Shown: in pieces, positions 61,935 to 63,816 of the stretch
Numbering within the stretch: position 1 is the stretch's first letter
Layout: the number at the start of each line of letters is the position of its first letter
Source of the DNA: Chrysomallon squamiferum
Taxonomy: Eukaryota; Animalia; Mollusca
Length of the DNA stretch: 64,000 nucleotides
Reading direction: 5' to 3'
Assembly: GCA_012295275.1 (NCBI GenBank)
Contig: CM022667.1
Coordinates: 2,108,001 to 2,172,000, forward strand
The notes under the pieces: model-generated
What the model was told of the DNA's origin: nothing
Seen by the model: the letters and a program-made list of their open reading frames with translations, nothing else
Databases searched by the model: none
Position numbers and translations under genes: made by a program

Positions 61935-63181
61935 TTAACGGCATGTGAGATACATGCCCGTACCTTGACAACGTCCACTACAACATCTCCTCAGACTGTT
62001 TCTGTTGCATCGATTACCACGTCTGATACACTAAAAAAATATATAAAAACAGTATAAGTATGAATGTTTATCTGTATATCTATCCATATATCCACCTACG
62101 TATACATATTTTTATATATAGATATATATATATGACAAACATATATTACACACAGACAGACACACACACACACACATATATATGTAGATATAAATGCATG
62201 AACGTAGGTAGATAAGGATGTAAGTATTTACAGATTTAGAGACATTAACGGTAAACTGGTAAATAGATTCACACATTAGATAAATATATAGAGACATATA
62301 GACAGATAGATATATTGATATATATAGACAGACGGACAAAGAGAGAGATAAATAGGTAGGTAGATAGATTTATTTATTTATTTATTTATTTATTTGTTTG
62401 TTTGTTTGTTTGTTTGTTTATTGATCTGAAAATTGCGAACGTTACTAAAATATTTAAATAATGTTTTCTATAACATACTAACAAAACGTTTTGTTTGTAA
62501 AACTTAAGATTTTTAAAAATATAAACTTACACCTAAACCGCCGTTGTTTCCGTAACTACATCTGTTCTGTTGACATCTCAGAGTACCACAGCAACGACGT
62601 TGTCCTAAAGTTTGACACCACTGTCCTTGACGTACACACTGTAATTTTAATAGGTTAGAAATGTTAATGAGTTCAATTTTATTTTCTTACTTATTTACTT
62701 TCTTTCGTGCTGACTTAGTTACTTACTTTCTTTCTTACTTGTTTATATACTAACTTACTTGTTTTCTTATATATACAGAGAGAGAGAGAGAGAGAGAGAG
62801 AGAGAGAGAGAGAGAGAGAGAGAGAGAGAGAGAGAGAGAGAGAGAGAGAGAGAGAGAGAGAGAGAAAATCAAATAGGTAGTTAGGTAGCTAACTAGACAG
62901 ATAATAACAGAGATACAGATATACAAAAAGACTCTCTCTCTCTCTTTCTCTCTTTTTTTCTGCCCTCTCAGATACTCTACATGTTTAAACTGACAATATG
63001 AGTAGATAATGAATGACTGAAAAGAAATACTTTTCAAGTAAAGAAAAATAAGTGGCATCGCTGAAACTTTATCCTAAACAAACATCTGTGCATTAGAGAA
63101 ATCTCTTACATTGTAATTGTTGCTAAAAGCAAAAGCTGAAACTGCCATCGATACGAGAAGCCATAGTATCATGTACTGCAT
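61935..63181 (-). CDS. Secreted double-knottin (tandem inhibitor-cystine-knot, conotoxin framework VI/VII-like) cationic peptide, 91 aa
   Basis: Coding exons 63181-63110 (MQYMILWLLVSMAVSAFAFSNNYN; acceptor T-tract CAG before 63187; donor GTAAGA), 62638-62531 (CVRQGQWCQTLGQRRCCGTLRCQQNRCSYGNNGGLG; donor GTAAGT) and 62030-61935 (CIRRGNRCNRNSLRRCCSGRCQGTGMYLTCR, TAA). All introns are phase 0. AATAAA at 61853-61848. Confidence 0.88.
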
Positions 63182-63757
63182 TGTGATCTGAAAAAAAAAA
63201 AAAAATTCGATGAAAAAACAGAGTGAGTGTGAGGGAGTGGATGTGTGGCTCTGTAGCTGTGTTTCTCTGAACATTTGATTATAATAGCATAATAAACAGT
63301 TTTCGTATTTCTAAAACAGATTGAGAGAATCTGATCTCTTTCAGTACTTTTTTGTTTTGTATTTGTGTGTGTGTATATATATACTAAAGGACGTTGTCAT
63401 AAATACATAAATTATTAATAATTTAATACACGTGTGTAACCAATGTTTGTTAATGTGTGTATGGCTAGTTTGTCTCAGTAGCAGGTATGCATAGATGGAT
63501 GGACGAATATCTATATGAACGTATGTATTATGTATGTAGCTATATATATGTATGTAAGTATTTATGTAAATATGTAGGTAGATAGGAAAGTAGGTAAATA
63601 GCGAACTAAAGATCATAAAGAGAGAGAGAGAGAGAGAGAGAGAGAGAGAGAGAGAGAGAGAGAGAGAGAGAGAGAGAGAGAGAGAGAGAGAGAGAGAGAG
63701 AGAGAGAGAGAGAGAGAGAGAGGATTAAATGTTACAGCTAAAACATTTAAAACGTAC

Positions 63758-63816
63758 CTGTTGTTCTGTTGACTGTTCTGGTTATATTCGTCTACTGGTG
63801 TCTTGTGGTTTAAATA
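63758..63816 (-). promoter_or_regulatory. TATA-like box and short 5'UTR exon of the double-knottin gene
   Basis: TATTTAAA at 63816-63809. The exon ends at 63758 with a CAG|GTACGT donor, which can splice to the acceptor before 63187. Confidence 0.55.

Follow-up and report, generated by a model that had tools for sequence, protein, structure and literature searches.

A predicted gastropod gene for a double-knottin peptide with one cysteine-knot array per phase-0 exon

Exon structure of the predicted gene

The window examined here is a 64,000-nucleotide stretch of AT-rich, microsatellite-rich animal DNA (contig CM022667.1), and the element in question is a predicted minus-strand gene near its end whose three small coding exons, A to C, would encode a secreted peptide with two tandem knottin domains (knot 1 and knot 2; Table 1). 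Coding lengths are 72 nt in exon A (63181-63110), 108 nt in exon B and 96 nt in exon C including the TAA codon, all multiples of three. Both coding introns are GT-AG and phase 0, with donors GTAAGA and GTAAGT and acceptors consisting of pyrimidine- or AT-rich tracts that end in CAG or TAG. From these signals we infer that the three exons are joined by splicing. A non-coding exon of the 5′ untranslated region (UTR) ending at 63758 is plausible, and its intron would run from the donor CAG/GTACGT to an acceptor at 63187. The original prediction, made from the letters of the window, had described the three exons, their junctions, the cysteine spacing and a nine-residue linker, and re-derived coordinates and loop lengths confirmed each of these.

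Table 1. Features of the window (positions are those of the 64,000-nucleotide stretch)
Feature	Position	Strand	Remarks
Predicted knottin gene	61935-63816	minus	3 coding exons and a putative 5′ UTR exon
TATA-like word, 5′ of the 5′ UTR exon	63809..63816	minus	weak, at chance level
Predicted non-coding 5′ UTR exon	63758..63800	minus	3′ end set by the donor at 63758; 5′ end approximate; inferred
Exon A	63110..63187	minus	6 nt UTR, ATG at 63181, 24 codons, phase-0 donor GTAAGA
Exon A product		minus	predicted signal peptide and 6 mature residues
Intron A-B	62639..63109	minus	471 nt, phase 0, contains a (CT)n microsatellite
Exon B	62531..62638	minus	knot 1 and 9-aa Gly/Asn linker; symmetric 0-0; 5 Arg, 0 acidic
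Intron B-C	62031..62530	minus	500 nt, phase 0; no ATG-led frame carrying a strong donor in frame
Exon C, coding part	61935..62030	minus	knot 2, one extra Arg, TAA; 8 Arg, 0 acidic
First AATAAA, candidate polyadenylation signal	61848..61853	minus	82 nt past the stop; at chance level
Insect-type (sapecin/phormicin-like) defensin gene	57160..58504	minus	signal exon 58504-58456, phase-1 intron, six-cysteine core from 57355
Small secreted Gly/Met/Tyr-rich protein genes, three near-identical	2079-2474, 3467-3862, 7556-7906	minus, plus, minus	signal peptide, then GGMM/GGYGMM repeats
Ligand-gated chloride channel gene (glycine-receptor-like/GluCl-like)	11214-16667	plus	six exons by tblastn
Amino-acid permease exons	~21300-28960	plus	Pfam AA_permease_2 on one exon
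Rhodopsin-family G-protein-coupled receptor exons	~35800-47200	minus	Pfam 7tm_1 on two exons

The spliced product would be a precursor of 91 residues (aa) comprising a signal peptide, knot 1, the 9-aa linker and knot 2. Exon A encodes a hydrophobic core (7-residue Kyte-Doolittle values up to 3.0) and no basic residue. Residues 16-18 form an A-X-A site, and cleavage after residue 18 was assigned by the -3,-1 rule. If cleavage occurs there, the mature peptide would have 73 aa, a mass of about 8.3 kDa and a net charge of about +13, with 12 Cys, 13 Arg and no Lys, Asp, Glu or His. Only six residues, none of them basic or acidic, separate the predicted cleavage site from Cys1, leaving no propeptide and no KR or RR end to a pre-pro region; the earlier description of a signal peptide with no acidic propeptide behind it holds. 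Exon B opens with Cys1 of knot 1, C-X6-C-X7-CC-X4-C-X4-C (loops 6/7/0/4/4), and exon C with Cys1 of knot 2, C-X6-C-X7-CC-X3-C-X8-C (loops 6/7/0/3/8); together the two exons encode three aromatic residues. The only dibasic sites lie within the knots, and since the linker has none, both knots would remain in one chain.

The loose C-C-CC-C-C pattern had three matches in the six frames of the window, compared with a mean of 0.16 per shuffled window, and at least two matches occurred in 1 of 100 shuffles. The strict pattern, which starts at the first codon after an AG, had two matches in 64 kb, exactly exons B and C, and none in 200 local shuffles. For an in-frame GTAAG(T/A) to fall within 15 codons of a given point, the chance probability is about 1.4%. 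Taken together, the strict matches and the in-frame consensus splice sites argue that the gene is real. We consider it very likely that this is a genuine, orphan double-knottin gene, and likely that the locus is a functional spliced gene. The third loose match (29014-29094, plus strand) was rejected, as no acceptor lies immediately 5′ of it. Neither knot is found among the open reading frames of at least 70 aa in the window, in agreement with the earlier remark that the reading-frame track misses both. The original prediction had also listed a 5′ UTR exon, a TATA-like box and AATAAA. All are present or plausible, but the two short words carry no evidential weight: in window DNA, with its 30% GC, a TATA-like word has a chance probability of about 39% per 100 nt and AATAAA of about 52% per 200 nt, and both were dismissed as evidence for a gene because of this frequency.

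A model of two separate genes was rejected, as intron B-C contains no signal exon carrying an in-frame donor. Skipping of exon B would stay in frame because both introns are phase 0, and we propose that a one-knot form could be made in this way. If the donor after exon B is left unused, the frame continues for five codons to a stop (62516-62530, minus strand), and intron retention would yield a one-knot product.

Sequence variation around exon B could be followed in a 401-base contig from run X1, which spans 62430-62790, the limits of this comparison, with 12 differing letters and two gaps; the run is DNA-like, as the contig crosses both intron flanks of the exon. Ten substitutions are listed, nine of them intronic and one in exon B, where it is silent at the sixth Cys codon. 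This pattern fits constraint on exon B but is not significant. Three observations count against the case for a functional gene: the difference between exon and intron gives a Fisher p of 0.15, or 0.08 if the two unlisted differences are intronic; eight of the nine intronic changes fall inside 40 nt; and no transcript or peptide was found for the gene, although the RNA contig sets X2-X4 lack coverage of exon B and carry no weight either way. Eight substitutions and a 2-base insertion are clustered at 62475-62512, in the intron beside exon B, which suggests a divergent allele. The missing transcript, the failure of searches to return a homologue (see below) and the chance-level promoter and polyadenylation words would all suit a silent relic or chance assembly from which no peptide is made. 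We consider this highly improbable, as the strict pattern was absent from all 200 shuffles, none of the 12 cysteines is lost, the frame is unbroken and both introns are intact, and the sole exonic variant in X1 is silent.

Predicted fold and sequence relatives

Both domains have the six-cysteine C-C-CC-C-C order with knottin-sized loops. Each knot was modelled separately with AlphaFold2 from single-sequence input, which gave a mean predicted local distance difference test score (pLDDT) of 77.7 and a predicted template modelling score (pTM) of 0.45 for knot 1, and values of 83.6 and 0.41 for knot 2, with three of five knot 2 models below 66. In Foldseek searches nearly all rows were knottins by entry title, and a wide structural search returned 46 rows for knot 1 and 36 for knot 2 at Z of at least 2. 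Ep-AMP1 and mu-agatoxin were tied at the top for knot 1 (Z 3.4, root-mean-square deviation (rmsd) 1.4-1.5 over 29-30 residues; for Ep-AMP1, 1.4 over 29). The top row for knot 2 was bidentatide (Z 3.7), and tachystatin B followed at Z 3.5 (rmsd 1.4 over 31 residues) with 39% identity, the highest in the fold list. The models suggest that each domain likely adopts the knottin fold. Knottins dominate the matches to solved structures, but all scores, including these best Z values, are weak. Several points speak against the fold assignment. No Foldseek row reached an E value up to 0.001 for either knot and no row of the wide search reached a Z of 5, rows tied within 1 Z mix spider toxins, conotoxins and antimicrobial peptides, and AlphaFold has mis-paired the disulfides of another peptide that shares the cysteine framework (PMC11035057).

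The same framework can take up a mini-granulin fold, as described for TxVIIB (PMC11035057), and synthetic MgCRP-I peptides first formed 1-2, 3-4 and 5-6 bonds (PMC4558851). Together with the single-sequence models and their pTM values, these reports would suit a real gene whose domains are not knotted but carry a mini-granulin fold or sequential disulfides, in which case the comparison with double-knot toxins would fail. We regard this as very unlikely. Mini-granulin loops have 2-4 residues (PMC11035057), whereas loops 1 and 2 have six and seven in both knots here, the MgCRP-I result was later ascribed to misfolding in vitro (PMC10138031), and knottins dominate the fold lists.

Searches of PDB sequences gave seven matches for knot 1, the best being the spider venom peptides agelenin (E 0.09) and Sth1a (E 0.15), with Xt3a among the weak ones (E 6.6); knot 2 matched only Alo-3 (E 0.17) and Ep-AMP1 (E 0.44). 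With a two-knot profile, agelenin was again best (E 0.0018). Toxin_7 was the sole Pfam family matched by the knots, below its cut-off (E 3.9e-4 for exon B, 0.023 for exon C), and exon A matched no Pfam family. The top cluster in the ESM Atlas (0.90 and 0.92) carries Toxin_12 on just 14% of its members and is a generic knottin lead. No conotoxin appeared among the PDB sequence matches at E up to 10 for knot 1, knot 2 or the two-knot profile. The original prediction had linked the peptide to conotoxins, partly through a CCSG motif recalling an omega-conotoxin. This link did not survive: the motif is generic, the PDB matches of the knot 2 sequence are the antimicrobial peptides Alo-3 and Ep-AMP1, and precursor layout and intron phases differ from those described for conotoxins (PMC3862624).

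Homologue searches, which are weak tests for 30-residue cysteine-rich queries, returned nothing acceptable. A word-based search with the two-knot alignment gave no candidate at 17-100 aa, and none of 32 candidates at 101-2000 aa reached an E value up to 1. HMMER over 1.84 billion representatives gave no acceptable homologue; its two matches at E up to 0.001 were translated tandem repeats aligning at 11-12 positions and were rejected. None of 66 pattern matches in viral contigs and none of 295 in metagenome contigs could be confirmed. NCBIfam gave no meaningful match, Rfam gave none over 55000-64000, and no paralogue of exons A-C was found inside the window.

The two knots may share an origin, as judged from their sequences: both have six and seven residues in loops 1 and 2, and 315 of 10,000 cysteine-fixed shuffles equalled or exceeded their score at the protein level. 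At the DNA level, and counting against such an origin, the similarity of exons B and C did not rise above control (4464 of 5000 shuffles were as high), which does not bear out exon duplication. If both knots came from one exon, the duplication would be old; two paralogous exons may instead have been the source.

Relation to known knottins and to the host lineage

The closest precedent is the multi-CRP-I family of Mytilus, predicted knottins with 2-5 tandem C-C-CC-C-C arrays in a non-venomous mussel (PMC4558851, PMC10138031). As described there, the family shares with the gene reported here a non-venomous molluscan host, a secreted cationic precursor (predicted in our case), at least two arrays, a first exon confined to the 5′ UTR and a suspected role in defence. 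The differences are considerable. In multi-CRP-I precursors a propeptide of some 15 aa ends in a dibasic KR or RR (PMC4558851), whereas no propeptide is predicted here; their introns are phase 1 and phase 2 rather than 0/0, and 2-4 residues separate their arrays as against a 9-aa linker (PMC4558851, PMC10138031). All arrays lie in the last exon, and the authors exclude exon duplication (PMC10138031), whereas each array has its own exon here. Knot 1 fits the multi-CRP-I spacing C(X3-6)C(X1-7)CC(X3-4)C(X3-5)C but knot 2, with a last loop of eight, does not (PMC4558851), and these two reports place the family in Mytilus only, whereas the present gene is from a gastropod (PMC4558851, PMC10138031). 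Membership is ruled out by the missing propeptide, the knot 2 spacing and the one-array-per-exon layout. The suggestion in the original prediction of a possibly undescribed bivalent knottin thus stands insofar as no homologue was found, but it had overlooked the tandem knottins of non-venomous mussels as the nearest precedent (PMC4558851, PMC10138031).

Two three-disulfide domains of the inhibitor cystine knot (ICK) type, in one secreted chain with a short linker, also define DkTx, Hi1a/Hc1a, CpTx1 and the remipede Xt3a (the SCREP architecture; PMC13172734, PMC9950431), and the predicted product here has this layout at the level of sequence. Reported linkers have 12 residues in DkTx, six in Hi1a and four in Xt3a (PMC9950431). 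The bivalent ICK toxins are, however, components of arthropod venoms, and sequence similarity is negligible (for Xt3a, the E value given above). In Hc1a one exon, preceded by exons for the signal and the propeptide, holds both knots (PMC13172734), in contrast to one knot per exon here. The 2026 spider study expected exon shuffling but found intra-exon duplication, and states that an intron-driven origin is unreported for bivalent toxins (PMC13172734).

Six-cysteine ICK domains from non-venom tissue are found in tachystatins (horseshoe crab), Alo-3 (beetle), Ep-AMP1 (cactus) and wasp naickins (PMC10608444, PMC2853521), which are among the best weak matches. These peptides are single-domain and come from arthropods or plants, and as similarity is below significance they serve as a working analogy rather than as a family. 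O-superfamily conotoxins and the vexitoxins of Vexillum share a gastropod host and cysteine framework VI/VII with the present gene (PMC3862624, PMC9363990), but both have a single knot and belong to neogastropod venom glands. Conotoxins of this superfamily encode signal, propeptide and mature peptide in one exon each, and the introns between them are phase 1 and, for the most part, phase 2 (PMC3862624). Identity with them was rejected on the absence of a propeptide and of any conotoxin PDB match, the 0/0 intron phases and the non-neogastropod host. The I2 superfamily is described as the only conotoxin superfamily with a phase-0 first intron and no propeptide, and it has other frameworks (PMC3862624). 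The X-tox and nasonin-6 multi-defensins, secreted proteins of immune type, likewise give each cysteine-rich module its own exon, which is read as a sign of exon duplication (PMC4558851, PMC2853521); their modules are insect defensins (CS-alpha-beta) rather than knottins, and nasonin introns are phase 1 (PMC2853521).

The host was placed with the ligand-gated chloride channel gene of the window, one transmembrane exon of which shares 88% identity with Gigantopelta aegis proteins across 118 residues and about 85% with abalone and limpet proteins over similar spans. A tree was built from three exon blocks and 37 sequences, in which 36 of 120 listed homologues had been chosen as molluscan and annelid representatives. 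The window grouped with Gigantopelta (ultrafast bootstrap (UFBoot) 98) and next with Haliotis, at a support of only 65; the neogastropods Nucella and Babylonia fell elsewhere. From these sequences the host is likely a neomphalid-type gastropod, with the caveat that one gene and 37 sequences carry the placement. The original prediction had seen no other sign of a venomous host in the window, and the tree places the window outside venomous snail lineages. Gigantopelta itself is a symbiont-bearing deep-sea vent snail with endosymbionts and expanded immune families, and the main text of the paper describing it has 0 occurrences of toxin, defensin, antimicrob, cysteine-rich or knottin (PMC7895826). 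A 2015 survey recorded the framework in molluscs only from Mytilus and Conoidea and noted its absence from Aplysia, Lottia and Biomphalaria (PMC4558851); a later report extended this range to the venom of Vexillum (PMC9363990).

Tandem knottins are already on record from a mollusc without venom; what appears to be new here, among the reports compared, is one knot per symmetric exon and the occurrence of this framework in a snail outside the neogastropods. Searches of the open-access literature gave no account of this gene and none of a double knottin with one knot per exon, although ScrepYard, KNOTTIN, ConoServer and genome annotations could list such sequences. One knot per 0-0 exon would supply a missing architecture for multivalency, permitting one-knot and two-knot splice forms, and would represent an intron-based route to double-knot peptides of a kind unreported for spider double-knot toxins (PMC13172734). 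A copy outside the neogastropods widens the range of the framework and suggests that annotation misses knottin genes with tiny exons. On the evidence of a single gene, read from its sequence, the peptide may also be a natural, stable two-domain scaffold that is directly testable.

Possible function and neighbouring genes

A defensin gene overlooked in the original prediction starts 3431 bases past the knottin stop on the same strand (Table 1). Its core scores above the cut-off for Pfam Defensin_2 (E 2.7e-7) and also matches structures of insect defensins, with a best E of 6.4e-7; its propeptide is acidic and ends in KR. The Arg-rich composition of the double knottin, this neighbouring gene and the matches to Alo-3, Ep-AMP1 and tachystatin B lead us to favour host defence over venom, in which two rigid Arg-rich domains on a short flexible linker would bind to anionic or chitinous surfaces of microbes or parasites; we hold it to be the likeliest role, with even chances for and against. 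Tachystatins are active on bacteria and fungi and bind chitin (PMC10608444), and knottins serve defence in non-venomous arthropods and plants (PMC2853521). Under the host-defence reading, the gene would be spliced and the product secreted and cleaved after residue 18, and each domain would fold with C1-C4, C2-C5 and C3-C6 bonds. The knots would remain joined, raising avidity or local charge, and the target would be a microbial or parasite surface, as with tachystatins and Alo-3. The second knot would stem from a symmetric phase-0 exon that was duplicated or inserted so long ago that DNA similarity has vanished.

Several observations pull away from host defence. The spider venom peptides agelenin and Sth1a lead the knot 1 matches, agelenin leads those of the two-knot profile, and the Pfam match to Toxin_7 stays below its cut-off. 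The defensin core is near neutral (3 K/R, 4 D/E, 3 H), and its adjacency to the knottin gene may be chance. The mussel peptide sCRP-I H1 showed no antibacterial effect at concentrations up to 32 uM but harmed moth larvae and eukaryotic cells (PMC10138031); as it harmed eukaryotes and not bacteria, there is room for a channel-directed role against parasites.

The toxicity of sCRP-I H1 to eukaryotes (PMC10138031) would also suit a bivalent ion-channel ligand like DkTx, Hi1a or Xt3a, deployed in mucus to ward off predators or parasites or serving the animal itself as an endogenous modulator, with a linker that lets both knots engage one channel. The linkers of Xt3a, Hi1a and DkTx range from 4 to 12 residues (PMC9950431), a span that includes the 9-aa uncleavable linker here; the weak matches include agelenin, Sth1a and Xt3a besides Toxin_7, and the Arg clusters resemble those of calcins. 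We nevertheless consider a channel ligand unlikely. With three aromatic residues in all, the knots would offer a poor hydrophobic patch compared with gating-modifier toxins. The host falls outside the neogastropods in the channel tree, and we know of no venom apparatus in neomphalid-type snails. Venom ICK genes typically form expanded families (PMC13172734), whereas the present gene has no paralogue in the window; it also lacks a propeptide.

We judge it quite unlikely that the peptide is a non-immune extracellular binder, whether an inhibitor of proteases or amylases or a matrix peptide that binds chitin in shell, operculum or cuticle. The amaranth amylase inhibitor and SOTI-III appear at tied Z in the fold lists, tachystatins bind chitin and have been proposed to aid exoskeleton assembly (PMC10608444), and genes for secreted Gly/Met/Tyr-rich proteins of structural type are present elsewhere in the window. 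However, these genes are more than 50 kb distant, sCRP-I H1 inhibited none of four proteases (PMC10138031), and the extreme Arg bias and the adjoining defensin gene suit host defence better. A bolder form of the host-defence reading combines a bivalent knot ligand built by symmetric exon duplication, control of symbionts or parasites in a symbiont-bearing, non-venomous vent-type snail, and the presence of framework VI/VII in gastropods long before cone-snail venom; we put this combination forward as a doubtful proposal.

Further observations concern the neighbouring genes. A GTAAGA directly after the defensin core may mark a further intron, which would alter the C-terminus. The defensin intron contains, at about 57540-58308, an element that has inverted repeats at its termini (CAGTGGTACC...GGTACCACTG) and resembles Tigger/pogo elements in these ends and in a short transposase-like fragment. 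The Gly/Met/Tyr-rich proteins are possibly matrix or cuticle proteins; the middle copy of the three genes is inverted, and the third has no Pfam match.

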